From Acidobacteriota bacterium (GTDB lineage: Bacteria; Acidobacteriota; Thermoanaerobaculia; Thermoanaerobaculales; Sulfomarinibacteraceae), in NCBI GenBank assembly GCA_013152895.1, contig JAADFN010000032.1, positions 1 through 55,892 on the forward strand: DNA of 55,892 nt. The letters run 5' to 3'. Below, piece by piece: positions 308-32,890 of this stretch. A program made the translations under genes and the position numbers. Numbering within the stretch: the stretch's first letter is position 1; every line of letters begins with the position of its first letter. The notes under the pieces were generated by a model that was not told where the DNA came from, searched no databases, and saw only the letters and a program-made list of their open reading frames with translations.

Positions 308-2800
308 ATGAACGACGTCAAACCACCGATGAGCGCCGACGAGCTGCGAGACCGGTTCGTCCGTTACCTGCGGTACCAGCGTGGCTTGCGTCTCGACGAG
401 GCCGGCCCCGCCGAGTACCTCGCCGCGCTCGAGCTCGTGGTTCGCGACGTGCTGATCGACCGTGCAATGGACACGCAACGAACGTACGATCTCGTCAAGC
501 CGAAGACCGTCCACTACCTCTCCATGGAGTTCCTGCTCGGCCGGCTCCTCCACAACAACCTGATCTCGACCGGCCTGCTCGAGCCCGCACGCGAGGCGAT
601 GCAGCAGCTCGGCCTCAACCTCGACGTGATCACCGAAGAAGAACCCGATCCCGGCCTCGGCAACGGCGGCCTGGGACGGCTCGCGGCGTGCTTCCTCGAC
701 TCCCTCGCCACCCTCGACTACCCGGCCTTTGGATACGGCTTGCGGTACGAGTACGGCATGTTCCGGCAGGAGATCCAAAACGGCTGGCAGGTGGAGCGGC
801 CGGATACGTGGCTCAAGGGCGGCTACGCCTGGGAGATTCCGCGCCCCGACCTGACAGTCCCGGTCAAGGTCGGCGGTGGGGTGGAGTGGCACCAGGGCGC
901 GAGCGGCAAGTTCCGGCCATCGTGGGTCAACTGGCGCGTCTTTTACGGCGTTCCCCACGACATCCTCGTCGCCGGCTATCAGACGGGAACCGTGTCGATA
1001 CTCCGTCTCTGGGCTGCCGAGGCGCCCCGGGAGTTCGACTTCCAGATCTTCTCCCAGGGGGATTTCATCAAGGCAGTCGCGGAACGCGAGCGGATCGAAT
1101 CGGTCACACGCGTGCTCTACCCGGCCGACGAGGTCGAGGCCGGCCGCCGTCTCCGCCTGCTCCAGGAGTACTTCCTCGTCGCCTCGTCGGTCCAGGACAC
1201 GATGCGCCGTTTCCGCGCCCGGTACGGCGAGGCGTGGGAGCTTTTGCCCGACGCGGTCGCGTTTCAGCTCAACGACACGCACCCTGCGCTGGCCATCGCC
1301 GAGCTCATGCGCTTCCTCGTCGACGAGGCCGAGCTCAGGTGGTCGAAGGCGTGGGAGCTGACCCGTGCGGTCTGCTCGTACACCAATCACACGATGCTCC
1401 CGGAGGCGCTGGAGACGTGGCCAGTCGGATTGATGGAATCGATGCTCCCCCGGCACGTCCAGATCATCTACGAGATCAACCGGCGGTTCCTCAACGGGCT
1501 CTCCCCGGCGATCCAGCAGGACGTCGAGCGGCTGAAGAGGCTTTCGCTGATCCACGAGGACGGGGAGAAGCGCTTCAGAATGGCCCATCTGGCGATCGTA
1601 GGCAGTCACAGGATCAACGGCGTTGCACGCCTGCACACCGAGCTCATCAAGACCCGCCTCGTTCCCGACTTCGCGGCCCTGTGGCCCGACCGTTTCCTCG
1701 CCATCACCAACGGCATCACACCGAGACGCTGGCTGGGCGCCTGCAACCCGAGGCTGGCAGCGATCATCTCGAAGCGTATCGGGCCCGGCTGGCTTCACAA
1801 CCTGCGGCGGCTCGTCGAGCTTGCCCCGATGGCCGGAGACGCCGGGCTCCAGGAGGAGGTTCGCCACGCGAAGCACTCCGCCAAGATCGACCTGGCGCAG
1901 ACGATTTCCGAGCTGTGCAACGTCACGGCCGACCCGGACTCGCTCTTCGACGTCCAGATCAAGCGCCTGCACGAGTACAAGCGGCAACTCCTCAACGCCA
2001 TGCACGTCATCGCACTCTACCGGCGTCTCAAGGCCGACCCGTCGGCCGCGGTCGTCCCCCGCACCGTGATCTTCGCTGCGAAGGCTGCGCCCGCGTACCA
2101 CATGGCCAAGTTGATCATCCGCCTGATCAACGGCATCGGCCACGTGGTCAACAACGACCCGGATACCGCCGGTCATCTCAGCGTCGTCTTCCTCCCCGAC
2201 TACCGCGTGACGCTGGCGGAGAAGATCATCCCGGCCGCCGATCTCTCCGAGCAGATCTCGGCCGCCGGGTGGGAGGCGTCGGGAACCGGCAACATGAAGC
2301 TCGCCCTCAACGGCGCGTTGACGATCGGCACCCTCGACGGCGCGAACATCGAGATCCGGGACGCCGTCGGTCCCGAGAACATCTTCATCTTCGGGCTGAC
2401 CGCCGACGAGGCGCTCCGGCTGACCACCGTCAGCCAGTACGACCCGTGGAACTACTACCGATCGGATCCGGAGCTCGCCGGAGTCATGGACGACCTCCAC
2501 ACCGGCCGCTTCACCCCCGGCGAGGAGCACGTCTCCAGGGAGATCTGGTCAGCGTTGATGGAACACGGCGACCGCTACCTGCACCTCGCAGACTTCCGTT
2601 CCTACGCCGACACCCAGGCCCGCGTCGCCGCGCTCTACACCGATCCCGCCGCATGGACGGCCATGGCCATCAAGAACATCGCCGCCATGGGTTACTTCTC
2701 CTCCGACCGCGCCATCCGCGAGTACGCCGAAAAGATCTGGAATCTCCATCCCGTTCCGGTCAACGCGAACCCCAAGATGCCCACGGACACCTCCACGTAA
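308..2800 (+). CDS. glgP: Glycogen/starch/alpha-glucan phosphorylase
   Basis: YLSMEFL, GLGNGGLGRLAACFLDS, QLNDTHP, YTNHT, ITNGITPRRW, QIKRLHEYKRQ, EASGTGNMK (PLP lysine); start moved to ATG 308 behind the GGAGGG RBS. Confidence 0.97.
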   Translation: MNDVKPPMSADELRDRFVRYLRYQRGLRLDEAGPAEYLAALELVVRDVLIDRAMDTQRTYDLVKPKTVHYLSMEFLLGRLLHNNLISTGLLEPAREAMQQLGLNLDVITEEEPDPGLGNGGLGRLAACFLDSLATLDYPAFGYGLRYEYGMFRQEIQNGWQVERPDTWLKGGYAWEIPRPDLTVPVKVGGGVEWHQGASGKFRPSWVNWRVFYGVPHDILVAGYQTGTVSILRLWAAEAPREFDFQIFSQGDFIKAVAERERIESVTRVLYPADEVEAGRRLRLLQEYFLVASSVQDTMRRFRARYGEAWELLPDAVAFQLNDTHPALAIAELMRFLVDEAELRWSKAWELTRAVCSYTNHTMLPEALETWPVGLMESMLPRHVQIIYEINRRFLNGLSPAIQQDVERLKRLSLIHEDGEKRFRMAHLAIVGSHRINGVARLHTELIKTRLVPDFAALWPDRFLAITNGITPRRWLGACNPRLAAIISKRIGPGWLHNLRRLVELAPMAGDAGLQEEVRHAKHSAKIDLAQTISELCNVTADPDSLFDVQIKRLHEYKRQLLNAMHVIALYRRLKADPSAAVVPRTVIFAAKAAPAYHMAKLIIRLINGIGHVVNNDPDTAGHLSVVFLPDYRVTLAEKIIPAADLSEQISAAGWEASGTGNMKLALNGALTIGTLDGANIEIRDAVGPENIFIFGLTADEALRLTTVSQYDPWNYYRSDPELAGVMDDLHTGRFTPGEEHVSREIWSALMEHGDRYLHLADFRSYADTQARVAALYTDPAAWTAMAIKNIAAMGYFSSDRAIREYAEKIWNLHPVPVNANPKMPTDTST

Positions 2801-3080
2801 CGGCACCACGGACGGCGACCAAGGCCGCGGAACGCTCCGTCCACATCATTCCTGAGTATCTCGTGCCACCCGGGAGCGGCCCATCACGGTGCTGACGATC
2901 CGCGAGACACATCATGGCCCACCGCTCGTGGTCATGCCCGGCCCGGTCCGGTGATTGATATCACCTCTTCCGGATACCCGTCCGTGCCGTCGCACGCACC
3001 GTCCCCCGTCGGCCAGCCGGCCCAAAGCGGGCAATCGAGAAGGCGCCATCGGGCTGCCGAGCCGGGGCCCGGATTCCGGA

Positions 3081-3101
3081 ATCACCTGTTTGGGTGATGA
3101 C
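3081..3101 (+). promoter_or_regulatory. 21-bp palindromic operator-like box ATCACC-TGTTTG-GGTGAT-GAC upstream of peptidase operon 1
   Basis: Exact reverse-complement copy at 8465-8485 upstream of the convergent operon. Confidence 0.75.
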
Positions 3102-3372
3102 GGCGCAACTCCGGAAGATGTATTCACGGTAATAGATGTCACGTTGTAATCACGGGGCCGGATCACGGCTCGTTCGGTCACCAGGCCGGGCTGCTCACGG
3201 TCGCCGTGGACAGTGAGATCGCCCGGCGGCGGCGAGCCTCCGGAGGTCCAGGAGGAAAGGGGGTGGCAGAGAGAGCTTATTGAAGGAAGGATCGAAGGCT
3301 GTGACGGTTACTGGTGCACTCCGCACGGATTGTGCCGGTCCCGCCGATGATGGCAACCGAAAGGAGAACACG

Positions 3373-4557
3373 ATGGGAAAGATTGAATTGCAAGAGGCAC
3401 GACGGCTGGCTGGACTGGAGTTGAACGGGTTGGCAATAACCGGGGCGATCGCCGTCGAGGAAATCGGTGGCGCACGCGTCGGTGCGAGAGGCACCACGAT
3501 CTACGATCCCAGCGGCGAGCCACTGTTCTACCGCGTACCGTTGCACCGCGGAAGGGGAAGGATCGGCTTTACCGACGTGGCCGCGGACGAAGCTTTAGGG
3601 GAGCCACTGCTCGCCACGACGTACGGTGCGGCCTGGGACGAGACGAAGATCAAGCGGGAAGCCATGGTGCACGCCAGAAGGCTGCGGCGCAACCTCAGGT
3701 ACACGAGGATCCGGTTCGTCGCCTACAGCTATCCGAAAGTGGCGGTCCAGTTTCTGCACGGATCCGAAGAAGTGTTGATGCTGGAATGGGGATCATGGGC
3801 GAAGGTGCCACCAGCGAGTGTCGGTGACCGTCACCCCATGGAGCCCGGAAACTTCGAGAGATGGTCGTTGCTCGAAGAGATGCCCGATCGGGTCCGGAGA
3901 GCGAACGAAGAATCGTTCAGAGCTCGTGTCGGCGCCTGGCGCGAGGCGACCGCCGTCCGGGCCTTCCGGGGGTTGGATACCTTGCGGGTGAGGCCCGATC
4001 TGGTGCGGATCAGGCCGGAGATGATTCGTCTTTTCGGCTCGAGAGAGCTCCATTTTTCGGGAGACGCCGGCACGCATCATCCGTGTTATGAGCTCACCGG
4101 CCAGGCCACAAGCGTCTGGTGCGTGGCGGCAAGCACGCAGATGCTCCTGGCGTTCTGGCGCTACGGGTACACCCAGGACCGAATCGCCCAGGCATTGGGG
4201 CTTGGCACCCGCGCTCATCCGAGCGGGCTGCCCTACTCCCGGGTCGGGGACGTCGTGACACAGATCGAGGCCCTGACCTCCCACGCCCTGGACGCCACCA
4301 TGGTTGTCAACCCCGGGTTCAACGTCTTTCGCGACGAGATCGATGAGAATCGTCCATTGATCAGCTTCATCCCCGGTCATTCACGCACGGTTGCGGGCTA
4401 CTATTACACGATACTTCATCTGCCCGGGCAGCTCGCGTTCCGGGGTCTGTTGGTGTACGACCCGTGGCCCCCGAACACCGGTACAATCCACAGGTATGAG
4501 AACTTCAACGTGCAAACCTACCAGTACGCGTACCACGCCCATCTGACCCTGGTGTGA
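3373..4557 (+). CDS. C39-like/papain-fold cysteine peptidase with an N-terminal accessory domain; no evident signal peptide
   Basis: GQATSVWCVAASTQML (oxyanion Q, catalytic C), GHSRTVAGY (His), LLVYDPWP (Asp); AAGGAG RBS before ATG 3373. Confidence 0.75.
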   Translation: MGKIELQEARRLAGLELNGLAITGAIAVEEIGGARVGARGTTIYDPSGEPLFYRVPLHRGRGRIGFTDVAADEALGEPLLATTYGAAWDETKIKREAMVHARRLRRNLRYTRIRFVAYSYPKVAVQFLHGSEEVLMLEWGSWAKVPPASVGDRHPMEPGNFERWSLLEEMPDRVRRANEESFRARVGAWREATAVRAFRGLDTLRVRPDLVRIRPEMIRLFGSRELHFSGDAGTHHPCYELTGQATSVWCVAASTQMLLAFWRYGYTQDRIAQALGLGTRAHPSGLPYSRVGDVVTQIEALTSHALDATMVVNPGFNVFRDEIDENRPLISFIPGHSRTVAGYYYTILHLPGQLAFRGLLVYDPWPPNTGTIHRYENFNVQTYQYAYHAHLTLV

Positions 4558-5072
4558 CCGTGTCCATGGATCGTGAGCTGCACGCCGTGTTGCGGAGAGC
4601 TGCGGAGCTCGTGCGGGCTGGCGTGGCCGGTGATCCATGGGTCCAACTCCACGGACGCTTGCGCGATCCGATGGTGGTCGTCCACCCCTGGGGCGACGCG
4701 CAATCCTGGCTCGTTCCCGTCACTGCCGGAGACCGGATGGTCGGCTACGTGCAGTTGAATCCCGACCTTCAATTCATGCGATACGTATCGTTCCAGAGAG
4801 TGCGCGGCAGCTTGAAGGACACACCGTTGGCGGCGGACTGGTTGGAAACCGAGCGTATCCGGGAGCGGGCGGCGGCTTTCGCCAGGCCTGACGAGATACT
4901 CGATGAGCCCGTTCTCACCTACGACCGGTATCCGGATCGGCTTGCATGGAGGGTCCAGGCTCGAAGCACGGATGGTGGAACGCGGGAGATCATGGTTGCC
5001 GGCGACATGGTTTACGAACCGGTCCAGCCCGGTGACGTGATCGGTGGTCCGGGAAACCAGGGAGCACCCTGA
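4554..5072 (+). CDS. Small hypothetical protein, PepSY/propeptide-like partner of the upstream peptidase
   Basis: GTGA overlap with the peptidase stop; PMVV..SWLVPV..VGYVQL and LAWRV pattern resembles the C-terminal domain of 5227-6417. Confidence 0.6.
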   Translation: MTVSMDRELHAVLRRAAELVRAGVAGDPWVQLHGRLRDPMVVVHPWGDAQSWLVPVTAGDRMVGYVQLNPDLQFMRYVSFQRVRGSLKDTPLAADWLETERIRERAAAFARPDEILDEPVLTYDRYPDRLAWRVQARSTDGGTREIMVAGDMVYEPVQPGDVIGGPGNQGAP

Positions 5073-5226
5073 TACCCGGATACGGCAAAATGGTCGGCCC
5101 CTGCCATCGAGGCAGGGGCCGATTCATCTTGGGACTTCCGGGCCGGCCGGAAGGATCAACGATGCGTTGGGCCGAGCCATCTTACACGCCGTTGTCCCTT
5201 CAGCTCGCAGCCGCCCATCGGCGAGA

Positions 5227-9792: not shown

Positions 9793-10156
9793 GGCGGGGG
9801 TTCTCCCTCACACGGGCGTGCCCGTACATCCCGAGACCGCTCACGGGGGCGAAGGAGACGTGAAGTTGAATTCTGGTTCTCACGCCAACTCATCCACGGC
9901 CTTTGTCGTCCACCGAGCATATCTCCTATCTCCTCCCGGTCCCTCCAGCTCCGATGCGCCCGCCGGGCTCGCTGAGGCGTTCGTCTCCGAGCCACAATCT
10001 TTGATCACGCCTATATGAATCCATGTTACTCAACCTGAGACACTCGCGTCAATACGACGTGATCTTCGACACACAAACAGGGTGCACAACGAGGGGAAGC
10101 GGACGCCGGGGAGGCGGCCGAGCCTGCCAACGACGATTCCTGTGCAACCCAGCAAC

Positions 10157-10203
10157 AGTGGAATCATCCCCAACTCGCGGGCGGGGCTGTGGAACAATCC
10201 CCA
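10157..10203. promoter_or_regulatory. Paired 16-bp dyad sites (putative sigma54-activator enhancer), pair 1
   Basis: AGTGGAATCATCCCCA (10157-10172) and TGTGGAACAATCCCCA (10188-10203), 31-bp period, ~75-120 bp upstream of a sigma54 motif. Confidence 0.7.
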
Positions 10204-10277
10204 CACACCACCCCTGGTGCAGCTGCACAATCCAGCGTTGCCGGCGCCGTTGCGGCTTTCACAACCTTGAAGACGGT

Positions 10278-10293
10278 TGGCACGGTTCTTGTA
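10278..10293 (+). promoter_or_regulatory. Putative sigma54 (-24/-12) promoter
   Basis: TGGCACGGTTCTTGTA; consensus TGGCACG-N4-TTGC with one mismatch at -12. Confidence 0.65.
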
Positions 10294-10355
10294 TTTCTAA
10301 TGAACGCTGTGTGGGTGCGAGCACTGAACATCCGAAAACCGGGGAGGTGAGAACA

Positions 10356-11084
10356 TTGTCACATTCCAGAGCGAGGCATCTGGTTCCGGTCCGGCTGGTA
10401 GGGATTCTTGGGGCGCTCGTTGTCGTGGCATCCGCCGGCGTCGTCATCGGTGCCAGCATCATCGGTTCAAAACACGATCTCTCCACGACGGGTGGCGACC
10501 CATACTCCGACCGGGTCTGCGTTTTCTGCCACACTCCTCACCACGCCAACGACACCCTGCCCATTCAGGCGCCGTTGTGGAACCGGTTCATCGACACCAA
10601 CGAGACCTTTACCGTGTACACAAGCCCGACCATGGACACCACTCCGGGCAATCCAAATACGACGGTTTCCATGCTGTGCCTCGGCTGCCACGACGGGACC
10701 AATGGCACGGCGGTGGTCAACGGCATCACCGGGAGCACCAAGCACGACCTGATCAATGCGCCCGGCCCGGGGGGGATCCCGGACACGACGTCGGAGCCCA
10801 ACTGTCGGCGCTGTCACGGCCAGATGTACGGCGACCCGCCGGCGGTCTGGCAGGGAACGGATCTTTCCAACGACCATCCTATCGCCATGACCTACCCCAC
10901 CTCGGCGCAGGATCCAATGTTCAACACGCCGCCAGATCTCAATACCGGATGGGCTCTGGTTCCCCTCTACAACGGGAAGGTGGAGTGTCCGACCTGCCAC
11001 GATGTCCACAATCCGGCCAATACGCCTTTCCTCCGCATGCCGAACGATGGCAGTCAGCTCTGTGTCACCTGCCACATCAAGTGA
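10356..11084 (+). CDS. OmcE-like multiheme cytochrome c, pentaheme variant
   Basis: Signal peptide, SKHDLS, CVFCHTPH, PLWNR, CLGCHDG, extra CRRCH, GTDLSNDHP, ECPTCH, PFLR, GSQLCVTCHIK; TTG start 8 nt after GGAGG. Confidence 0.85.
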   Translation: MSHSRARHLVPVRLVGILGALVVVASAGVVIGASIIGSKHDLSTTGGDPYSDRVCVFCHTPHHANDTLPIQAPLWNRFIDTNETFTVYTSPTMDTTPGNPNTTVSMLCLGCHDGTNGTAVVNGITGSTKHDLINAPGPGGIPDTTSEPNCRRCHGQMYGDPPAVWQGTDLSNDHPIAMTYPTSAQDPMFNTPPDLNTGWALVPLYNGKVECPTCHDVHNPANTPFLRMPNDGSQLCVTCHIK

Positions 11085-12332: not shown

Positions 12333-15161
12333 TCAATGGCAACCACTCACCGTCGCACAGGAGAACCTCCTGTAATTCCGGCTGTTCGAGATGCTCCAGG
12401 AGTTAATCCGCGCCGTGTTCCCCCCGGCGTTGTAAGGGGCCGGATCGGACGTCAGGACGATGAGCGCCTTGCGGTGCCAGCCGTGGGGTACCGCGGAGTG
12501 ACACCACGCGCACTTGAAGGTATTGGGAAACGCCGCGGAGTGGGTCCCGTGCAGGTTGATATACCCTCCCATCCACCGGGAGAAACCGGTCTGGCCGGTG
12601 CTGCTGCTCTTTCCGGCATAGGTCTTGTAATCGTGACACTCGAAGCACAGGCCGTTGGGAGTGTTGATCCCGCTGCTCGCATCCCAGGGCTTTTTGAGCA
12701 CCGGTGCGTTCGCCGAACCGTGCGGGCCCTGGACGCCCGAAGAATCGTCGTTCCCGTGGCAGTCGGAGCACACCATGGGCGAGCTCTTGGTCCATGGCGA
12801 GCCCGCGACAAAGGTCATGTAACGGCTCGTGCTGTTGGTACGCGGCGTGTTGTTGGCCGTGGTCCAGTCAGGGGGTTGCGTCGCCGTCTGGTCAGTCATG
12901 ACCCAGTGGTAGGCGTCGTTATTGACGTTGAACTCCAGCGCCTGGTCGGTTTCGCCCGTCGGCAGCGAGGTTCCATAGGCAAAGGAGCTGTGGCACTTCA
13001 AGCAGATCTGGTACTCCGCCGACGCGGCCGCCGGGTGCGAGGTGAAATTCGCGGAGGTGAAAACGGACCACTCGTTTGGAAGAGAGGCCACGCCGACCCC
13101 CGTGGCGCCCGTCAGGGCTCCGGCCAGACCCGCCGAAGCCGGAGTGTGCAGGCCGGCCTGCGCCCGGTGCGTGTCGTGGCAGTCGAGGCAATTGACGTGC
13201 CGGTTCGCCCCGGAGAAGGTCCCGTCGTTGAAGGTCGCCCCTTCCTCGGCCACGGTATTGTGGACGGAATCGGCCTCCACCGGGTGGCTCGATGCCTTGG
13301 CGATCACGGTCGCCACGTCCTTCCCCGAAAGGTTGACTCCCGTGGTCCCGTTTCCGTGACAGTTGTAACAGATGAAGTCGGAGGCGTTTCCTGCTGGGTT
13401 GATCGATCCCGAAAGTAGATCTGGATAGTCGGAGAAGTGGACGGCCCCGAACGGGCTGGAAGAGGCATCCGGTCTGCCGTCGCCACGATCCGCGTGGCAC
13501 TTGGTGCAGTTGCGTTTGAACGTGGAGCCGTCGTGAATCGTGTAGGTCCACGTACCGTAGGCGTTGGAAGTGTAGTTGTGGGCCGAGGCGCTGAAGGCCG
13601 TCTTGTCGATGGTAGGCCTCCCCGAAGCCACGGCGTTCTTGTGGCAGGAGACGCACATCCCGCCGTTGGCTTGGCTGGCGTCAAAATCCGTCTGGGCAGG
13701 CGTCCCGGAGATGATCTCGCCGTTGACGTTCCGGCCCACCGCCCGGCTCGCCTGGGTCGAGGCATCCTGATGGACGTTGTAGTTGTGTGTGGTTCCACCG
13801 GGCGTGTTGTGCACGTGATCCGGGTGGCACATGTTGACGCAGGAACGATCGGCGGGCGCCACCGCCGAGAGCGGCGCCGTCCAGGCGACACCGCTGTCTG
13901 TGAAGCTGTCGTTGACACCCAGCACGGAGCCAATGGAATGCCGGCTGGTCTTGGCCGTCGTGCCATTCATGCCCTCCCAGATCGTCGCGTGGCACCCTGC
14001 GCAGTTTGTGCCGCCCTTGCTCTCCGTGGCTGCGAAGCCCCGATTGTGGGGATGGCAGTTGACGCAGCGCGTGCCAGCATTGTGGGTGTGATTGCCACTG
14101 GCGTTGTTCCGGTGGTACTTGGTTCGTGTATGACAGGCTTCGCAAATGCCGTCATCGTAAGGAGCCGGCGTCGGAGAGGTGACCCCGAGGTAGCTCCGGT
14201 TCGGATTCGTTCCCCCGGTCCTGTCGTCCTCCCAGAACGTGATGTCCTTGGGACCGCTCGAGGGCGTCTCGATCGTTCCCCGGATCAGGTAGATGTTGAG
14301 CGTCCTGTGGGGCGTATGGCAGGTGAGACAGTCCACGGCCCAGTTGCCGTACTTGGTCCCCGTGAATTGGCTCGAATGGGTCGCCAGGTTGTGGCAGTCC
14401 ACGCAGAGCTCGGAGCCATTCGTACGCCGGAGGAGCTGCCCGCTGCCCGCCGGCCGCGTCCCATTGTTTCTCACCGAGACGCCCCGGACCGCGCGGGCGA
14501 CGTTGCCCGCTGCATCGGTGACCTCGACGGTGATCTCGTGCCAACCCCGCGCCAGGGCCGTCAGGTCAACGTTGAACTCCCATACCGAGCAGTTGGTTCC
14601 GCAGTCGTAGTTGGAGTTGACGGTCGCCGTCGTCGATGGTGCTCCCCCATCCACGTACCAGGCGAGCGGCGTGGCCGCAAGACCCCCCTCATCCCACACC
14701 TGGACCTTGACCCGCTCCGTGCCGCCGACCACCGCCCCCTGCGCGGGCACGAGGATGAGGACCGTCGGCGCGACGGTGTCCGCGCCACACGAGGGAAGGG
14801 TGAACGGCCCCAGCACCTCGGGGTTCGAACCGGAGACACCATCGGGATCGCTGAATGTCACGCGTACCCAGTAGCTCTGGCCCGCGGTCAGGCCGGGAAC
14901 CAGACACTGGCGCGGAGAGCCGCCGGAAAGTGCGCTACAGGCCACCGTTCCGGGCCAGCTATTCGCCGTGTTGTACTCCACCTGCGTGGCGCCATCACCG
15001 TTGTCGTCTCCCGTGAATCTGGACGTCACCGTCAACTCCGAGCAGGAAGACACCAGAACGTCGGACCCGACGACAACCGTATTGTTGCCAGCGAACGCGA
15101 TCATGGGAACAGCCAGGATCATGGCGAGGAACGGTCCCGTCAACGTACGTCGAAGCATCAT
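12333..15161 (-). CDS. Large secreted multiheme cytochrome c (13 CXXCH + CX3CH + CX5CH) with N-terminal FN3/Ig-like domains
   Basis: Signal peptide; DTVAPTVLI..P, GWHEITVEVTDAAGN (Ig-like); manual motif count; ATGA overlap with the upstream ORF stop. Confidence 0.9.
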   Translation of the reverse strand: MMLRRTLTGPFLAMILAVPMIAFAGNNTVVVGSDVLVSSCSELTVTSRFTGDDNGDGATQVEYNTANSWPGTVACSALSGGSPRQCLVPGLTAGQSYWVRVTFSDPDGVSGSNPEVLGPFTLPSCGADTVAPTVLILVPAQGAVVGGTERVKVQVWDEGGLAATPLAWYVDGGAPSTTATVNSNYDCGTNCSVWEFNVDLTALARGWHEITVEVTDAAGNVARAVRGVSVRNNGTRPAGSGQLLRRTNGSELCVDCHNLATHSSQFTGTKYGNWAVDCLTCHTPHRTLNIYLIRGTIETPSSGPKDITFWEDDRTGGTNPNRSYLGVTSPTPAPYDDGICEACHTRTKYHRNNASGNHTHNAGTRCVNCHPHNRGFAATESKGGTNCAGCHATIWEGMNGTTAKTSRHSIGSVLGVNDSFTDSGVAWTAPLSAVAPADRSCVNMCHPDHVHNTPGGTTHNYNVHQDASTQASRAVGRNVNGEIISGTPAQTDFDASQANGGMCVSCHKNAVASGRPTIDKTAFSASAHNYTSNAYGTWTYTIHDGSTFKRNCTKCHADRGDGRPDASSSPFGAVHFSDYPDLLSGSINPAGNASDFICYNCHGNGTTGVNLSGKDVATVIAKASSHPVEADSVHNTVAEEGATFNDGTFSGANRHVNCLDCHDTHRAQAGLHTPASAGLAGALTGATGVGVASLPNEWSVFTSANFTSHPAAASAEYQICLKCHSSFAYGTSLPTGETDQALEFNVNNDAYHWVMTDQTATQPPDWTTANNTPRTNSTSRYMTFVAGSPWTKSSPMVCSDCHGNDDSSGVQGPHGSANAPVLKKPWDASSGINTPNGLCFECHDYKTYAGKSSSTGQTGFSRWMGGYINLHGTHSAAFPNTFKCAWCHSAVPHGWHRKALIVLTSDPAPYNAGGNTARINSWSISNSRNYRRFSCATVSGCH

Positions 15162-18100
15162 GGCCCGTCCTCCGTGAAGGTATTGCTGTCGGCGTAATGA
15201 ACCCCGTGGCACGTCAGGCACTGGACACGGCCCCCGGCATCCAGGCGAAGGTTATCGGAGCTCACACCGTCCCCTCCGCCTCCCCCCTGGACGGCGCCGT
15301 TCCCGTCGAGGGGCACCGAGCGGTCGTATCCCCGCCCGTTGGCATTGAGGGCCACGCCGACCGGATGACTCTTCCATTTCCAGTCGAAGACCTCAACCTC
15401 GTTGTAATCCATGGTCCAGAGGGAATGACAGTCACGACAGAACTTGTCGCCGCTGGTATTGTCGCCCTGATCCAGGGGCGCGCGGAGGAAGGGATACGAC
15501 GCCGAAAACCGCCAGCGCTCTCCCAGGACGAAGGTCCCACCGGAGAAGGTTACCGTCAGGCCGTTGTCCAGGGGGACGCCGGTGCCGATGTCCGCTTCAC
15601 CGGCCCAGGTGGAGCCGCCGTCCTTGGAGTACCGAAAGTGGGCATTGGCGATGGTGATCTCGATCAGGTAGGACGAGCCCCCCGCACCGGTGTACGTCCC
15701 GCCCACGGTAACCTGCCCCGTACTGCCCAGGGAGGTGATGCGTTCCGGCGGTGACACGCGGAGTTGGCCGCGGTTGCTGGCCCTGGCCTTGTGCTGATCG
15801 TGGCATGTGGAGCAGACGACGTTGCCATTCATGATCCGTTTGACCATCTCGGGATTTGTTGGCATCTGGGCGCCCCACTGGGACGCATCGACCGGAACAT
15901 CGAAACGGTGCGTCGTTCCCGCCTGGCCCGGCACGGCCCTGTCCGACGAGTTGATGGGCAGAGCGGACGCAAGCCCGCCGGGGCTGTGACATGACTGACA
16001 GAGGTTAACGTTCCCGGCCGAGGTCGTCAGCGAGCCGCCCGCCGCATGGTGCCCCGTGTGGCATGAGGCGCAGTCGATGCCGAAGTACCAGTGAGGCGGG
16101 TCCACGGCCTGGACGGTCGCGGTCCCGGCGAGAAAGACGCCGATGAACACCAAGACCAGCGTGCGGCGCCGGAGAGCTGCCCACCCGGCAAGAGCGAGCA
16201 GCATCGCCATGAGGGCAAGGCCCCAGGGACCCACGGTGGGGATGCTTGCCGCCTGTCCGCCTTCGCCCGAGAGCGTGGCCGTCACCGGACCACCGGACGA
16301 CGTGCTCTCGACGGTCAGAGTCGCTTCCATGTGGCCCGTGGCATCCGGTGAGAACCGGACCTCCAGGGTGCAGGACTCCCCCGGCCCGATGGTGGCGCCG
16401 GTACACGGGTCGGCGACGAGAACGAACTGGGCGGCGTCCTCACCACCGATCTGAACGCTCGTCACGTCCAGAAAACCACCGCCGGCGTTGGAGAGCGTCA
16501 GGGTCCCCGGACCGCTGCTGTGACCCACAGCTACCGTTCCGAAATCCAGGCTGCCTGGCGACAGCTGCGCCAGGGCCGCGGGCGCCGCGATACCCCTCGC
16601 CTGAAGCGCGACCGTCTGGGAACCCTCTCCGCTGCACTGGAAGCTCAGGTCTCCCGCCACCCGGCCGGACCGGACCGGATCGAAAACAACCGTGGCGGTG
16701 CAGCTTTCACCGGGCGCAAGTCCATCGCCGCAGGTGGTCTGCGTCTCGAAGGCGGCGGGCCAATGGATACCGTAGATCCCCACGGGGACAGGACCCGTAT
16801 TGGTCAACTTGACAACGCGGGGTTCGCTCGTCTGTCCCACGGTGACATCTCCAAAGTCAAGAAGCGCCGGACTGGCTTCGGCCTGGGGAACCTCGGCTTC
16901 GGTGCCATCGAGCCGGAAGATCTGGACGCTGGAGGAATTGACAGAAGCTATCGCGAGACGTGGCGGGTTCTCCAGCACGGCAAGCCCCATGGGAGTGTGA
17001 AAACGCCCGGACTCGTCCCCGTACGTCCCCAGGCTTTCCCGGAAGCTGCCGTCGGCGTTGAAGGTCTGGATCCAGCTCTGGAAGGCGTCGGAAACGTACA
17101 GCACGTTCCCCGGTCCCACGGCGACACCGGCGGCCCGCGTCAGCTCTCCTTGACCATTGCCGAGGGAAGAAATGCTCTTGAGAAAGTTCCCCGCAGGATC
17201 GAAAACGAGGACCTGGCCGAGCACGGCGTCAGCCACCAGAACCTCTCCCGCGGGCGACCAGGCCAGCGCCACCGGTTCGCGAAATTCGCCGGAATTCTTC
17301 CCGCGCCGGCCGAAGGTGGCGGTAACGGTGCCCGACCCGTCGAAGGAAACCACCCGGCCAGTGGCGCCGTACAGGACCCAGATCCGATGGCCGGCCTGGT
17401 CGATCGCCACGTCGGTGACGGGACCGAGGGGAGCCCCAGGATCGAGACTACTCAGGATGCTGCCCGTGGCGGACAGCAGAAGCAGTCCTGTCCGGGTTCC
17501 CACCACGAGCCGGCCGAGCCAGTCCCCGGCCACGGAGGTGACGCCAGGGACCCGAACGGTTCCCAGAAACTCGCCCGTAACCGGGTTCACGAAATCCAGC
17601 CCGTCCACGGCCGCATCTGTCACCGCAAGGTCGCCCCACTCGTTGACACCGACGTCGAACGGAGCGGCCAGACCGCTGTCCAACGCCGTCTCCGCTACGG
17701 CGTTCGAGATGGTGAAATCCAACGTCTTGGAGGAGCTGTTGCCGCTTGGATCGCTGGCGGTGCACGTGACGGTTTCCCGTCCCGGAGCGGCCGGCGCGTG
17801 ATACGTGGCGGCGCCGCCGGAGCCGGGCGACACCGTGCCAAGGGCCGCAGACCAGCTGAAGGTAACGGGATCCCCCTGCGGATCTACCGCAGTCGCCTGC
17901 AACTGGGCGTTGCCGTCGACCAGAACCGGGTCATGGTCGACGGTCAGCGAGGTGATCACCGGCTCCTGGCCGGCGGTTGCGCTCACCTTGATCACGACCT
18001 GGGCGCTGGTGGTCTGACGGCCCCCGCACAAGGAGGTTCCGCTGTCAGCGAGTGTGATCGTCACGGTGACCGTTCCCTCCGTGGACGGCGCCCTCCAGAC

Positions 18101-18436
18101 GGCCGAGGCGGAGTATGGCGAGCCGCTGACCCCGTTGTCGATACTGTCGAAGGAGCCGAGGGATGCGTCCCACTGGGTCAAGTCCGCCCGGATGACCTGG
18201 CCACACCCGGTGGTGCAGGTGCCGGGACAATCGGGATCGTGGGCATCGACGGCGAGCGATACGGTTTCACCGGGTTTCACAACGGATGGCGTGGCCGTGA
18301 AGGTATCAATCACCGGTTCGGCCGCTGGGAGGACGGTCGCTCCGGCCACCATCAGCGCTCCGGCAAGCAGAATGCGAAGATGGGGAATAATCCCCAAATC
18401 TCCGCCCTTACCGGTGATGATTCCCCAGCATTCCAC
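15158..18436 (-). CDS. Composite surface protein: Ig-like + NHL propeller + two ASH/choice-of-anchor-D-like domains + internal IPTL-CTERM + second signal peptide + pentaheme cytochrome c
   Basis: NHL blades (GEFREPVALA, GRFHTPMGLAV), LDFGDVTVG..L.NTG repeats, IPTVGPWGLALMAMLLALAGWAALRRR, then CASCH, CQSCH, CSTCH, CRDCH, CLTCH; GTG start after GGAGGGAGGG (start uncertain). Confidence 0.85.
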   Translation of the reverse strand: MECWGIITGKGGDLGIIPHLRILLAGALMVAGATVLPAAEPVIDTFTATPSVVKPGETVSLAVDAHDPDCPGTCTTGCGQVIRADLTQWDASLGSFDSIDNGVSGSPYSASAVWRAPSTEGTVTVTITLADSGTSLCGGRQTTSAQVVIKVSATAGQEPVITSLTVDHDPVLVDGNAQLQATAVDPQGDPVTFSWSAALGTVSPGSGGAATYHAPAAPGRETVTCTASDPSGNSSSKTLDFTISNAVAETALDSGLAAPFDVGVNEWGDLAVTDAAVDGLDFVNPVTGEFLGTVRVPGVTSVAGDWLGRLVVGTRTGLLLLSATGSILSSLDPGAPLGPVTDVAIDQAGHRIWVLYGATGRVVSFDGSGTVTATFGRRGKNSGEFREPVALAWSPAGEVLVADAVLGQVLVFDPAGNFLKSISSLGNGQGELTRAAGVAVGPGNVLYVSDAFQSWIQTFNADGSFRESLGTYGDESGRFHTPMGLAVLENPPRLAIASVNSSSVQIFRLDGTEAEVPQAEASPALLDFGDVTVGQTSEPRVVKLTNTGPVPVGIYGIHWPAAFETQTTCGDGLAPGESCTATVVFDPVRSGRVAGDLSFQCSGEGSQTVALQARGIAAPAALAQLSPGSLDFGTVAVGHSSGPGTLTLSNAGGGFLDVTSVQIGGEDAAQFVLVADPCTGATIGPGESCTLEVRFSPDATGHMEATLTVESTSSGGPVTATLSGEGGQAASIPTVGPWGLALMAMLLALAGWAALRRRTLVLVFIGVFLAGTATVQAVDPPHWYFGIDCASCHTGHHAAGGSLTTSAGNVNLCQSCHSPGGLASALPINSSDRAVPGQAGTTHRFDVPVDASQWGAQMPTNPEMVKRIMNGNVVCSTCHDQHKARASNRGQLRVSPPERITSLGSTGQVTVGGTYTGAGGSSYLIEITIANAHFRYSKDGGSTWAGEADIGTGVPLDNGLTVTFSGGTFVLGERWRFSASYPFLRAPLDQGDNTSGDKFCRDCHSLWTMDYNEVEVFDWKWKSHPVGVALNANGRGYDRSVPLDGNGAVQGGGGGDGVSSDNLRLDAGGRVQCLTCHGVHYADSNTFTEDGP
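18381..18427. promoter_or_regulatory. Paired 16-bp dyad sites, pair 2
   Basis: TGGGGAATAATCCCCA (18381-18396) and CGGTGATGATTCCCCA (18412-18427), 31-bp period, near the divergent promoter region. Confidence 0.65.
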
Positions 18437-18465
18437 GATTCGTTCCCTCCCTCCAAATATACCTG

Positions 18466-18481
18466 AGCAAGAACCATTCCG
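18466..18481 (-). promoter_or_regulatory. Putative sigma54 promoter for the leftward cytochrome operon
   Basis: Minus strand CGGAATGGTTCTTGCT, GG-N10-GC with TTGC, 30 bp before the GTG start. Confidence 0.55.
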
Positions 18482-18613
18482 CCAACGGGGCTTCGCGCGG
18501 TGGCGGCGCCAAGAAGGCGCGAGATCGTCTCGCCCCTGAGAACACGCCTCGTTCATGTACCGCAAAGACCACGTGAGCTGCGATACAATCAACGCGCCGG
18601 GGAGGGTCCACGA

Positions 18614-20104
18614 GTGTCATCCGAGCCGTCCGCAACGAGCCACCGCTTCCGATTGCCATGGTCCCCGCGGACCTTGCTGATCCTGGTGCCCCTGCACCTC
18701 GTGGCCTTCCTGCTCCTGTACGTGGCCGTGCTGCACCTCGTCGTTCACGAGGTCGCCATGACGTACGAGGCGGAGAGCGGAGCGTTGCTCAACGCGGCCG
18801 TCAGCAAAATCCACTCCTCCATGGTGTGCTCGCAAGGAGGCGGCCTGCACGAACGGCTGGGGGACTTGATGGTATCTCACGAGATCCTGGGGCTTTCCGT
18901 CTTCAACGCATCGGGGCACCCCGGTTCTCCCGTCAGGCCGCCCAACCCCAGGGTATCGGCCTTTCTCGCCACTGACGCCGACGAGAATGTCCGCATCGAC
19001 AAGAACGGGGGAAAGACCACGCTGATCGCCATGGCGCGAATCCGGGCGACGAGCGAGTGCAAGCCGTGCCACATCCCGGGAGCGACCATCGGCGCGCTGA
19101 TGGTCACCCGGGATATCAGCGACGCCTTGAGTGCGACACGCCGCCGCACGGGGATCGGTCTCGCCTTGCTGATCGGGGGCTGGGCCGGACTCGTGGTCGT
19201 GGTCAACTTCGCCACGAAACGTTTCGCCACGGCGTCCGTTGACGCCCTCAAAGCCAGGGTGGCGGCAGAGCCCCCCAGTGCGGCGCCCACGACCGGCGTG
19301 CGGCTGGGCATGGACTCCCTGTCCCACGAGCTCTACCGGAGCCTGGAGAGCACGCTTCGCGAACACCGCAAGGAGCGCGCCGCCATGGAGAGCCGTTTCG
19401 AAAACGCCGAGCGGCTGGCCAGCATGGGGCAGCTCGCTGCGGGACTCGCTCACGAGATCAAGAACCCGGTGGCGGGCGTCCAGGGTGCCCTCGAGCTTCT
19501 CGTCGAGGAGTGCCACAACGACGATCGGATCGACCTCTACCAGCGCATGCTCGACGAGCTGAGGCGGGTGAACGAGACACTTCATTCACTGCTCCACTTC
19601 GCCCGTCCCCGGAAACCCCAGCGCCTCTCGACCGACATTCCGCTCCTCCTCAAAGACATCGCCGACCTTGCCCGGCCCGGGCTTTCCCGCCGGGGCATTA
19701 CCCTGAGCATCCGGGTGGATGAACGCGTGCGGACCTTCATCCTCGATCCGGGCCAGATTCGCCAGGTCGTCGTCAACTTGATCACCAACGCTGCGGACGC
19801 CATCGGTAGCTCGGGGAGCATCAAGCTCCTTGCAACGCCCTTCCCGGAAGGGAATGGAATGATCCTGGCCGTGGTGGACGACGGTCACGGCATGGACGAG
19901 GAGACTCTCAAGGCGGTGTTCGAGCCATTCTTCACCACCAAGCTGCACGGAACGGGGCTCGGACTGGCGGTCGCCCAGAAAATCGTCGAGAAGCACGGTG
20001 GGAGCATCCAGATTACCTCGGCGCCGGGAGAGGGGACGACGGTCTTCCTGCTGTTCCCCGATCCGGGCGAGGAGATTTCGTACAGCGGTGGAACGGAGGC
20101 CTGA
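18614..20104 (+). CDS. Membrane sensor histidine kinase with a periplasmic CXXCH (heme c) sensor domain
   Basis: Two TM segments flanking ECKPCH; H-box LAHEIKNP, N-box NLITNAADA, DDGHGM, FEPFFTTK, GTGLGL; GGAGGG RBS before GTG. Confidence 0.92.
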   Translation: MSSEPSATSHRFRLPWSPRTLLILVPLHLVAFLLLYVAVLHLVVHEVAMTYEAESGALLNAAVSKIHSSMVCSQGGGLHERLGDLMVSHEILGLSVFNASGHPGSPVRPPNPRVSAFLATDADENVRIDKNGGKTTLIAMARIRATSECKPCHIPGATIGALMVTRDISDALSATRRRTGIGLALLIGGWAGLVVVVNFATKRFATASVDALKARVAAEPPSAAPTTGVRLGMDSLSHELYRSLESTLREHRKERAAMESRFENAERLASMGQLAAGLAHEIKNPVAGVQGALELLVEECHNDDRIDLYQRMLDELRRVNETLHSLLHFARPRKPQRLSTDIPLLLKDIADLARPGLSRRGITLSIRVDERVRTFILDPGQIRQVVVNLITNAADAIGSSGSIKLLATPFPEGNGMILAVVDDGHGMDEETLKAVFEPFFTTKLHGTGLGLAVAQKIVEKHGGSIQITSAPGEGTTVFLLFPDPGEEISYSGGTEA

Positions 20105-20107
20105 GCC

Positions 20108-21466
20108 ATGGCATTGATTCTGCTCGTGGAGGACGAAGAGCTGCTCAGGTGGGCGCTGAAAAAGAGGCTTGCCAAGGCGGGACATGCCATCGACGAGGCG
20201 GGCTCCCTGGCCGAGGCGGCCGATCACCTCAAGCGTCGCCAGCCGGACCTGATGTTGCTCGATCTGGCACTCCCGGATGGCCATGGGCTCGATTTCTTCG
20301 AGGATCACCAGGCCGACCTGGAAAGTACCGTCACGATCATCATGACGGCCGTTGGCGAAGTGGAAGATGCCGTTCGCGCCATGAAGCTTGGCGCCTTCGA
20401 CTTCCTCTCGAAACCCGTAGATACCACCGAGCTCCTCAAGCTCATCGACCGCTCTTTGGCCCGCCGGCAGGAGTGTCTCACCGCCCAGGTCGCCCGCCGT
20501 GAGCAGGAGACCCGGACGAGCACCGATATCGTGGCACATTCGGCCGTGTTCAAGAAAGTACTGAACATCGCCTGCCAGGTCGCCCAGTCCCACGTCGACA
20601 CCATCCTGGTCCAGGGGGAGAGTGGCACCGGGAAGAACGTGGTCGCACGCTATATCCACGCGGTTTCGCAACGCCGGGACAAGCCGCTCCTCGAGATCAA
20701 CTGTGCTGCGCTTCCCGATCACCTGGTAGAGAGCGAGCTCTTCGGCCATGAACGGGGGGCATTTACCGATGCCAAGACGAGCAAGAAGGGAACCCTCGAG
20801 CTGGCCGCGACCGGCTGCCTCGTCCTCGACGAGATCAGTGAGCTGAAGCTCGAAGTCCAGGCCAAGCTCTTGCAGTTCCTGGAATCCAGGGTTTTCCGGC
20901 GTGTTGGCGGACTGCGGGAAATCCACGTGGAAACGCGCGTGATCGCCTTGACGAACCAGGACCTCCGGGAAATGGTGGCGGAGGGCAGGTTCCGGGCGGA
21001 TCTCTACTACCGGCTCGCCGTTTTCCCCATCACCGTTCCGCCCTTGCGGGAGCGCCACGAGGACGTTCTCCCGCTCGCATGGGCCTTTCTCCGGAAGTTA
21101 CAACCGGCGCTCGGACGCCGTTTCAACGGACTGACACGGGAGGCCGAAAACCTGTTGCTGGGGTACTCGTGGCCCGGCAACGTCCGCGAGCTGCGCAACG
21201 TGGTGGAGCGGGCAATGATTCTCGAAAAGGGCCCAGAGATCACCCCTTCGTCCCTGATCCTCGATCCGGAAACCGGGGCGCCCGCGCCTTCGGGCAGAAC
21301 CGAACCCCTGGCGGGGATCGTCCCCCTCGAAACCGCCGAACGAGAGCTCGTCCGGAGGGCCATGCGGGCGACGGGAGGCAACCAGACACGCGCGGCCGAG
21401 CTCCTGGGAATCACGCGGGATCAGCTCCGCTACCGGCTCAAGCGCTTTCCCGAGGCCAGCGAGTAA
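20108..21466 (+). CDS. NtrC-family sigma54-dependent response regulator
   Basis: REC (VEDE, LLDLALPDG, SKP), GESGTGK, ESELFGHERGAFTDA, FRADLYYRL, WPGNVRELRN, Fis-type HTH (GNQTRAAELLGI). Confidence 0.96.
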   Translation: MALILLVEDEELLRWALKKRLAKAGHAIDEAGSLAEAADHLKRRQPDLMLLDLALPDGHGLDFFEDHQADLESTVTIIMTAVGEVEDAVRAMKLGAFDFLSKPVDTTELLKLIDRSLARRQECLTAQVARREQETRTSTDIVAHSAVFKKVLNIACQVAQSHVDTILVQGESGTGKNVVARYIHAVSQRRDKPLLEINCAALPDHLVESELFGHERGAFTDAKTSKKGTLELAATGCLVLDEISELKLEVQAKLLQFLESRVFRRVGGLREIHVETRVIALTNQDLREMVAEGRFRADLYYRLAVFPITVPPLRERHEDVLPLAWAFLRKLQPALGRRFNGLTREAENLLLGYSWPGNVRELRNVVERAMILEKGPEITPSSLILDPETGAPAPSGRTEPLAGIVPLETAERELVRRAMRATGGNQTRAAELLGITRDQLRYRLKRFPEASE

Positions 21467-32152: not shown

Positions 32153-32890
32153 TCACGGCGATCCCTCGAGCGTCCGCTGGAGCCTTGCAAACAGCGGGGT
32201 CAACCGGTCGGGGTCGCCCGTCGCGGCGAGGATGACCCGGTAAAGCACCCCGACGTCCGTGTGTCCGAACGAGGTCGCGGCAGCCCACCGGGGTTTCGTG
32301 TCCGCGATCAGGCGGTCCAGGGCGTGACCCGCCTCCGGATCGAAGCCTTCGGGGTCGACGAGCTGGCCGAGACGCCGGGATACCGGCAGCGTCAGCCAGA
32401 GATGCGTGCACCGCTCCGCATCCCGGTGGGAGAACGCACGTTCGAGACGGTGGGCCAGCCGCTGGAGGCTGGGACCGACCGCGATCAGCCGCGGCTCACC
32501 GTCCCAGCGTTGACGAACGACGAGGTTGTACACGTCATCGGGACGGCGCAGCGTTTCGGCGACGCGGACCAACGTGTCGATGAGATCCGTCCGGACCCGG
32601 GCCTCGTCCGCCAACGGCGCGTCGATCTCAAGATCCAGGCGCCACGACTCATCTCCGGCGATCGCGCCGGCTTCGCGCCGCGACGCACCGTGGCCGGACG
32701 CCCCCGCGAGCTGCCAGCGAACATGGCAACCCCGGCCACGACGCGAGGCACGCACGGTGCGGACGAGCGCAGCCCAGGGGGCGAGAAGCACGAGGAACAC
32801 GGCGCCGGCCGCGGCCCGCAGGCATCCCCCCCGCGGTGGTTTCCCCGCTGCATCACACCGTTCCGGTTGGCGCAGCGCGCCTTCAGTCAT
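32153..32890 (-). CDS. Hypothetical membrane-anchored protein, last gene of the ccm operon
   Basis: ATG overlaps the ccmF stop; one N-terminal hydrophobic helix (AVFLVLLAPWAALV). Confidence 0.55.
   Translation of the reverse strand: MTEGALRQPERCDAAGKPPRGGCLRAAAGAVFLVLLAPWAALVRTVRASRRGRGCHVRWQLAGASGHGASRREAGAIAGDESWRLDLEIDAPLADEARVRTDLIDTLVRVAETLRRPDDVYNLVVRQRWDGEPRLIAVGPSLQRLAHRLERAFSHRDAERCTHLWLTLPVSRRLGQLVDPEGFDPEAGHALDRLIADTKPRWAAATSFGHTDVGVLYRVILAATGDPDRLTPLFARLQRTLEGSP

Follow-up and report, generated by a model that had tools for sequence, protein, structure and literature searches.

How can one polypeptide carry, in its middle, a sorting signal of a kind that normally closes a protein, and continue from there into what looks like a second exported protein? 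The question is raised by a gene on contig JAADFN010000032.1 (assembly GCA_013152895.1) of an Acidobacteriota bacterium of the family Sulfomarinibacteraceae; the window analysed here is the whole stretch of 55,892 nucleotides from position 1 of this contig. On the minus strand, at 15158..18436, the gene joins a scaffold protein, an internal IPTL-CTERM sorting signal, a basic RRR cluster, a second hydrophobic segment and a pentaheme c-type cytochrome in one frame. We read it as a translational fusion of two genes of a putative electron-transfer cassette, in which a membrane hairpin would export both halves and the exosortase XrtH and signal peptidase I would cut the chain; the probability of this reading is, in our estimate, roughly 0.6.

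The fused gene encodes 1092 residues from a GTG at 18436, and this form is present in the databases as protein P0003 from the same contig. The GTG was placed by arithmetic, and the consensus of 17 homologues begins at the same position. The longest open reading frame (ORF) around it (15158..18592, minus strand) runs to 1144 residues from a TTG at 18592; residue numbers refer to this longer frame unless stated otherwise. At the joint, the frame reads ...GQAASIPTVGPWGLALMAMLLALAGWAALRRRTLVLVFIGVFLAGTATVQAVDPPHWYF... without a stop, and residues 784–829 correspond, again by arithmetic, to nucleotides 16243–16106 of the minus strand. A 17-residue hydropathy scan of the whole protein shows only three strongly hydrophobic segments (72–91, 791–807 and 811–830), of which the latter two, the candidate arms of a hairpin, reach Kyte-Doolittle maximum means of 2.10 and 2.29. 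The first of these arms belongs to the IPTL-CTERM signal (16163..16243, minus strand; residues 784–810), which consists of IPTVGPWG, a transmembrane (TM) helix and RRR. It is matched by TIGR04174 with 26.2 bits (cut-off 20.5; 33.2 bits in a genome scan) and by PF18203 over residues 782–809 with 29.9 bits (gathering score 20.8), and it ends at residue 810 of 1144, 334 residues short of the C-terminus. The second arm, TLVLVFIGVFLAGTATVQA (16106..16162, minus strand; residues 811–829), reads RRR / TLVLVFIGVFLAG / TATVQA; its residues −3 (V) and −1 (A) follow the pattern of signal peptidase I. Its position is internal, starting at residue 808–811, and not N-terminal as in an ordinary Sec signal. 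Stop codons, ATG and GGAGG are all absent from the DNA of the joint; CTG, TTG and GTG codons are present inside the hydrophobic segment. Translation may, formally, start internally at one of these, and the product of such a start within the h-region would have no n-region.

The frame itself is the first thing to be questioned. A draft genome of 221 contigs could contain an assembly or indel error that joins two genes, one base being enough to fuse the frames of the split relatives described below, or the gene could be a recent non-functional pseudo-fusion. In a word-indexed search with residues 700–1144, 8000 candidates were scored and 131 proteins reached E≤1e-3. The best 15 of them (P0003–P0017), drawn from NCBI, JGI, ENA and Logan assemblies, show 41–100% identity over 93–100% of the queried region and carry the joint in frame; those that are full-length have 1082–1253 residues. 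The joint sequences of the fused relatives have diverged, yet all of them remain in frame. In a sample of 151 genomes of the class, two further species-representative genomes of the same family contain the same joint, in open frames of 1099 and 1092 residues. Independent assemblies thus keep the frame, which substitutes for a read-level check of the joint. By this comparison an assembly error is not the origin of the fused frame, and we regard error or non-functional pseudo-fusion as a very improbable account of the gene.

Beyond the joint lies the cytochrome module (15161..16105, minus strand; residues 830–1144), which starts with VDPPHWYF, has a central β-sandwich insert and matches Paired_CXXCH_1 with 32.6 bits (gathering score 20.6). 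All five CXXCH motifs of the fused gene lie downstream of the joint. An exhaustive phmmer search with residues 780–1144 found 506 homologues (E≤1e-3), most of which are stand-alone and 340–390 residues long. When the fused protein is aligned with 24 stand-alone homologues, RRR coincides with their n-regions and the hydrophobic run with their h-regions, and VQA/VDPPH coincides with AxA/xDPPH, so that the internal segment is aligned throughout with N-terminal signal peptides. Alanine occupies position −1 in 13/15 fused forms with an IPTL signal, in 8/8 fused forms with a Cys-type signal (see below) and in 62/71 stand-alone forms; at −3, 14 of the 15 fused-IPTL forms have A or V. Between the last basic residue and −1 the median distance is 19 in fused-IPTL forms, against 16 in stand-alone ones. 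By homology, the second hydrophobic segment derives from the signal peptide that a stand-alone cytochrome once carried at its N-terminus, and a single RRR cluster that serves both as tail of the sorting signal and as n-region of the second signal fits this alignment. A twin-arginine translocation (Tat) signal was also considered for RRRTL and was rejected on two grounds: the n-regions of the stand-alone homologues are ordinary, with single or mixed basic residues, and c-type cytochromes mature from unfolded chains.

The main fused clade comprises 13 sequences, in which I784, P785, G791, G803, A829 and D831–W835 are invariant (13/13) and the basic cluster is kept in 10–11/13. In the linker (779–783) and across the second h-region, agreement of letters is just 3–8/13. 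With motifs kept beside a variable linker and h-region, both signals look maintained. These results bear out the observation behind the original prediction and part of its interpretation; the prediction had been made from the DNA letters and a list of their ORFs. Its observation is confirmed as written, the minus strand having gone unstated there: the gene boundaries it gave, 15158–18436, agree with the 1092-residue P0003, and its joint at about 16106–16243 with residues 784–829. The halves are, as it said, not separated by a stop, a ribosome-binding site (of GGAGG type) or an ATG, and its count of five CXXCH motifs after the joint is the same as ours. The internal IPTL-CTERM signal, for which it had proposed a profile search, exceeds the thresholds of both profiles, the sharing of RRR by two signals agrees with the alignment to the 24 stand-alone homologues, and its view that the junction is not accidental is upheld by the in-frame joint of the 15 proteins. 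The two cleavages, the anchored scaffold, the released cytochrome and their 1:1 ratio, which it also put forward, belong to the proposed mechanism that follows.

In the mechanism that we favour, the N-terminal signal peptide would begin Sec export of the scaffold, and the IPTL-CTERM helix would act as a stop-transfer segment that leaves RRR in the cytoplasm. The former signal peptide of the cytochrome would then re-insert as the second arm of the hairpin and restart translocation, so that the apo-cytochrome would arrive in the periplasm for heme attachment. The maturation step is supported by a cytochrome c maturation gene inside the window, close to the cytochrome genes (32886–35426, minus strand; 847 residues with Cytochrom_C_asm, CcmF_C and a ResB-like end). 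Signal peptidase I would cut after VQA and release a cytochrome beginning VDPPHWYF, XrtH would cut at the IPTL motif and hand the scaffold towards the cell surface, where it would be anchored, and a hairpin peptide of about 45 residues would stay in the membrane. The end products would match what the split genes yield as separate proteins, with the ratio fixed at 1:1.

The invariant alanine bears on whether signal peptidase I takes part. If XrtH alone cut the chain, the second segment would be an uncleaved signal-anchor; once the scaffold had been released, the remaining hairpin would hold the cytochrome at the inner membrane, so that a protein otherwise soluble in the periplasm would become membrane-bound. 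The hairpin is hydrophobic enough for membrane retention (2.10 and 2.29 over 17 residues), and its internal location is unusual for signal peptidase I. A sortase-type cut alone is also possible in principle, to judge from HVO_0405, whose centrally placed signal is cleaved in an ArtA-dependent manner (PMC7157517). Against such an anchor, the −1 alanine is invariant in 13/13 sequences and −3 is small, while adjoining positions of the c-region vary freely; a kept peptidase site fits this pattern better than a plain anchor. A core of about 13 residues after RRR, followed by the polar c-region TATVQA, is typical of cleaved signals, and the cytochrome of the split relatives bears an ordinary, cleavable-looking signal. 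We therefore consider an XrtH-only cut unlikely, while taking it seriously.

The origin of the fused gene can be followed in loci where the two proteins are encoded separately. A genome scan gave 237 stretches encoding a relative in species representatives, from which 80 loci were kept; we examined the 47 with a match over most of the module, 37 of which have a stand-alone-looking cytochrome gene. A large ORF (290–1877 residues, stop to stop) ends 50–286 nucleotides before the DxPH codon in 37/37 of these loci, and in 34/37 it is homologous to the N-terminal part of the window protein (22–42% identity); at L021, L029 and L059 no match between the two was found. The record titles of the loci name Acidobacteriota, Anaeromyxobacter, other Myxococcota, Nitrospirota, Victivallales and others. 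At L107 the upstream protein ends in a clear IPTL-CTERM signal (36.7 bits); at L011 and L012 it has degenerate IPxxxPAG-TM-RR tails with weak NF033207 matches only, and the tail at L018 gave no match to a hidden Markov model (HMM). The upstream stop overlaps the cytochrome ATG as ATGA at L012, L018 and L107, and L011 has a two-base gap; at such junctions a one-base indel could fuse the frames.

In a tree built from 68 modules, the 13 fused sequences closest to the window form a group (Shimodaira-Hasegawa-like approximate likelihood ratio test, SH-aLRT, 92) whose sister is the split pair L011/L012 (SH-aLRT 99). Gene order and tree together indicate that the fused gene is a fusion of a conserved, adjacent pair of scaffold and cytochrome genes, and that the pair is ancestral. 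Whether homologues keep the fusion, a question posed with the original prediction, has a divided answer: 15 proteins do, and among the module-bearing genomes of the class sample 3/12 are fused and 9/12 split. At E≤1e-20 the module was not found in G143, a genome 99% complete from the same genus as the window genome. Its absence from the search of this sole other sampled congener, together with its presence in more distant members of the family, points to a patchy distribution.

The same order of elements is met in other contexts. We sorted by class 150 listed representatives of the 506 module homologues: 104 are stand-alone, with the module within 70 residues of the N-terminus, 34 are fragments or are without the start motif, and 12 have the module internally. 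Ten of these 12 modules are preceded by two hydrophobic segments split by a basic cluster, two by none and none by a single segment; six of the ten were identified by a regular expression, and P0141, P0217, P0222 and P0243 were added by eye. For both parts to lie outside the cytoplasm, the topology demands that the chain cross the membrane an even number of times. The module is found, too, downstream of Cys-type signals, with RRR and a segment resembling a signal peptide in between. MYXO-CTERM exceeded its cut-off of 20 bits in 2/6 joints tested (P0141, 27.3 bits; P0222, 21.4 bits); P0142 and P0213 scored below it, and P0243 and P0266 gave no match. Judged by profile matches and alignment, the order of sorting signal, RRR, signal peptide and module thus recurs behind two signal types, IPTL-CTERM and MYXO-CTERM. 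The tree, in which gains and losses look alike for want of a root, needs at least three state changes for the IPTL fusions and at least three for the Cys-type fusions. A single clade of all 25 fused rows, a group named after inspection of the tree, is rejected by the approximately unbiased (AU) test (log-likelihood difference 257.9, p-AU 7.9e-7).

A cognate-type exosortase backs the internal IPTL-CTERM signal. XrtH is encoded on contig C121 of the window's genome (TIGR04177, 136.5–136.7 bits; cut-off 86), where it is the sole match to the exosortase family PF09721, and its gene is followed by that of an XrtH-associated membrane protein (41.7 bits; cut-off 35). In the class sample, in which the unpublished genomes G024, G378 and G409 are counted, XrtH is above cut-off in 114/151 genomes and any XrtH match occurs in 116. 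IPTL-CTERM occurs in 73/151 genomes, all of them among the 116, and in 0/35 genomes without XrtH; one of the positives, G131, has its XrtH match under cut-off only. XrtH is present in 3/3 genomes in which the module is fused and in 3/3 with a split pair whose upstream protein has an IP-type tail; among the six split genomes without such a tail it was found in one (G056) and not in the other five, G399 being counted as negative from its absence among the XrtH matches. That XrtH is the enzyme of IPTL-CTERM we presume from NCBI naming, the names at hand being "exosortase H" and "midcut-by-XrtH protein".

These counts also bear on whether the chain is cut at all. It might persist as a single inner-membrane protein on a two-helix hairpin, with both halves in the periplasm and the IPTL motif a relic. 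Such a view gains from the fact that both cleavages are deduced from sequence, which equally weighs against our own reading, and from a complex prediction suggesting, if faintly, that scaffold and cytochrome may bind each other anyway. The prediction for the pair gave a median interaction prediction score from aligned errors (ipSAE) of 0.51 (runs 0.51, 0.59 and 0.00) and 0.00 for the best of three controls, with at least 11% of contacts common between runs and a partner predicted local distance difference test (pLDDT) score of at least 72. The mark applied is reached by 58/80 solved complexes and 2/110 mismatched pairs, counts that are roughly valid here because the alignments were our own; at scores of 0.60 or below, just 7 of the 80 solved complexes and both mismatches reach it. 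A relic would not be expected to show the IP...G signature in 13/13 sequences beside a variable linker, all three fused genomes of the class sample have XrtH, and in the split relatives the products are separate proteins. In addition, the S-layer protein mela_00855 of Methylomirabilis lanthanidiphila, which has a predicted IPTL-CTERM domain, is located at the cell surface, this being the one tested case (PMC8671808). An uncut chain thus appears quite unlikely.

Several further points weigh against two cleavages and two products. Most relatives keep scaffold and cytochrome genes separate and adjacent, and the fusion may be merely tolerated and not advantageous. XrtH is paired with IPTL-CTERM on the strength of NCBIfam names and co-occurrence counts; the co-occurrence was compared by eye among related genomes, which are not independent, and a literature search brought up no biochemical study of either exosortase H or IPTL-CTERM. 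Signal peptidase I usually acts on N-terminal signals, and that it would also cut past the second arm of a hairpin whose loop has three residues is an assumption from first principles. The −1 alanine could also owe its conservation to a role in the mature fold. The window protein also scores 41.3–41.9 bits with NF033207, under the cut-off of 45. Lastly, the AlphaFold2 model of P0002 joins the two hydrophobic segments as one long helix (pLDDT 60–75), a picture that speaks neither for nor against a hairpin in the membrane.

The same model has a mean pLDDT of 67.3 and a predicted TM-score of 0.55, with the first two heme motifs below 50 and the β-sandwich (approximately residues 170–255 of P0002) at pLDDT 85–95. 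A Foldseek search of the PDB with this mediocre model gave no match at E≤0.001, the top TM-scores being at most 0.2 and driven by the long helix. With regard to nanowire cytochromes of the OmcS/OmcE type, profile searches of the PDB gave weak matches to cytochrome motifs in OmcS (24.9 bits) and 7tfs (24.1 bits), with independent E-values of 0.09–0.9 per stretch. In 25 sequences, six histidines that belong to no CXXCH motif are invariant (P0002 residues 55, 69, 116, 155, 297 and 353). One of them, at window residue 834, is the histidine of DPPH, four residues past the presumed signal peptidase site.

A further-reaching proposal would make the hairpin a selected device, with 1:1 co-delivery, use by at least two sorting systems, a DPPH histidine set free by the signal peptidase cut and a scaffold that seeds cytochrome assembly. 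Six invariant non-motif histidines set against five hemes leave one spare, which might ligate the heme of a neighbouring subunit; such ligation occurs in cytochrome filaments. If the proposal were true, a surface scaffold and a cytochrome would pass through the same translocon beside the same sorting enzyme, the arrangement would have arisen repeatedly with the unrelated pairs XrtH/IPTL-CTERM and myxosortase/MYXO-CTERM, and the scaffold would seed or hold an extracellular cytochrome assembly. Taken jointly, these elements make a doubtful case.

Other sorting signals of this type were noted in the same and related genomes. The window genome has ordinary C-terminal IPTL-CTERM proteins (...AIPTL...RR, stop) on contigs C42 and C8. 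Its contig C38 encodes, at approximately 1869–5165 on the plus strand (L112:370–3666), a 1098-residue protein with β-helix-like and Calx-beta-like regions that carries, mid-chain, EIPVLGSWG, a TM segment, RRR and a second hydrophobic segment ending in AMA, followed by about 130 residues more. TIGR04174 matches it with 24.0 bits in the genome scan and 17.2 bits in hmmscan, and no near-length homologue of its tail (184 residues) was found. Three Acidobacteriota loci, L089 (G266), L097 (G226) and L098 (G005), likewise have a mid-chain IPTL-type signal, a basic cluster and a second hydrophobic segment, with 200–420 further residues of non-cytochrome type; L097 resembles a counterpart of the C38 protein. 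The architecture is thus not limited to the cytochrome cassette.

The scaffold half starts with a predicted Sec-type signal peptide, LRILLAGALMVAGATVLPAA (18320..18379, minus strand; residues 72–91), placed by its hydropathy peak. This segment is hydrophobic and ends PAA/EP; a lipobox was considered and rejected, as the segment contains no cysteine. It is followed by a bacterial immunoglobulin (Ig)/PKD-like domain (17711..17962, minus strand; residues 211–294), matched by Pfam Big_9 (29.7 bits, gathering score 23.6) and PKD (24.6, gathering score 23.5), and by an NHL-type β-propeller-like region (16898..17695, minus strand; residues 300–565, boundaries approximate). The propeller region matches the six-bladed DUF5128 (26.8 bits, gathering score 22.9), falls just under the threshold of Pfam NHL (19.9, gathering score 20) and scores 73.5 bits with NCBIfam scyF_NHL, under its cut-off of 350. 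Two choice-of-anchor D/ASH-type Ig domains (16262..16891, minus strand; residues 568–777) lead up to the joint; NF012200 matches two stretches with 126.3 bits (cut-off 45), and the region also matches PF22544 (72.8) and ASH (56.2) of Pfam.

Directly downstream of the fused gene lies a second multiheme cytochrome gene (12333..15161, minus strand) with 13 CXXCH motifs and one CX3-4CH. The TGA of the fused gene overlaps its ATG at 15158–15161 (ATGA), with GGAGGA upstream, a junction that resembles the one between scaffold and pentaheme genes of the split relatives. A 13-CXXCH cytochrome is kept downstream of the module in many loci, with tblastn identities of 75% at L009, 69% at L012, 55% at L011 and 40% at L034. 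At 18500–21466 (plus strand), divergent from the fused gene, lie genes for a sensor histidine kinase and a response regulator of the sigma-54 type; the best NCBIfam match of the regulator is the PEP-CTERM-box response regulator, with 379 bits under a cut-off of 502.6. Exopolysaccharide genes at 43737–48087 (minus strand) comprise a member of the UDP-glucose/GDP-mannose dehydrogenase family adjoining a chain-length-determinant tyrosine kinase type (Wzz/GNVR/AAA_31). A 353-residue ORF at 10023–11084 (plus strand) has five CXXCH motifs and a doubled-CXXCH match (40.7 bits) near its C-terminus; its N-terminal part is unlike a signal peptide, and its true start may therefore lie further in.

What the fusion may mean is of interest in several respects. 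If cleaved as proposed, a chain of about 115 kDa would yield, besides the scaffold, a fragment of about 33 kDa that stains for heme, and would be a convenient reporter of XrtH activity; HVO_0405 was used in this way for the archaeosortase (PMC7157517). The fusion is also a Rosetta-stone link between NHL/Ig scaffolds and the multiheme cytochromes of putative extracellular electron-transfer clusters. NHL-repeat proteins are listed beside multiheme cytochromes in such clusters, as UetHI in PMC10734462 and as DFE_0451/0463 in PMC9769857, and in the accessible portions of both papers they appear without an assigned role. A role of the cassette in extracellular electron transfer can reasonably be inferred from these associations of sequence. 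More generally, the gene would be a bacterial example of a c-type cytochrome exported, probably, by an internal, retained signal peptide, and would suggest that C-terminal sorting signals can outlast gene fusion where a second membrane span restores the topology.

Among known systems, the classical C-terminal IPTL-CTERM proteins share the same HMM-defined signal, whereas the window protein has 334 residues beyond it. One chain that yields two membrane or exported proteins through a cut at an internal signal after a membrane span is familiar from FbcH, the cytochrome b/c1 precursor of Bradyrhizobium japonicum, and from viral envelope polyproteins; one product of FbcH is itself a c-type cytochrome, but neither FbcH nor the viral polyproteins are known to have a sortase-type sorting signal. 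The family nearest by profile is NF033207, "midcut-by-XrtH protein", which likewise has an XrtH-type signal mid-chain; the window protein has its own in a genome that encodes XrtH. Positions 14–90 of its 175 align with residues 760–838, from the IPTL motif to about 10 residues past the second segment; the fused homologue P0016 scores 44.8 bits, and none of the 301 sampled genomes of the phylum has a match above cut-off. Compared by name and profile, the two differ in the tail after the cut, which is here a pentaheme cytochrome of about 315 residues and not the family's own tail. The literature search, supplements being outside its scope, found no paper using the name "midcut-by-XrtH" and no account of a fusion that combines a retained Sec signal with a c-type cytochrome, of its conservation within a clade or of its recurrence across two sorting systems.

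Two experimental organisms offer closer parallels. In Haloferax volcanii the fused gene product HVO_0405 carries a centrally placed signal, the primary study being reportedly that of Abdul Halim et al. from 2017. Cleavage at this signal needs the exosortase homologue ArtA (PMC7157517). HVO_0405 is an archaeal, strain-specific Tat substrate with a PGF-CTERM signal. MXAN_5598 of Myxococcus xanthus, a presumed fusion of two genes, has an internal MYXO-CTERM signal, and processing of its N-terminal part is proposed in PMC11980579; there, the enzyme would be a CPBP-family myxosortase and the C-terminal part is an outer-membrane β-barrel with an OmpA domain. Haft's myxosortase preprint does not mention internal signals. 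The likeness to our case extends to the signal, as the cytochrome module of the window also occurs behind MYXO-CTERM. Together with the midcut-by-XrtH family, these proteins make a mid-chain sortase-type signal after gene fusion a known principle, less new than the original prediction implied. In comparison with HVO_0405, the window protein is bacterial, pairs IPTL-CTERM with XrtH, is conserved within a clade and carries a second, Sec-type signal that would serve the export of a heme protein.

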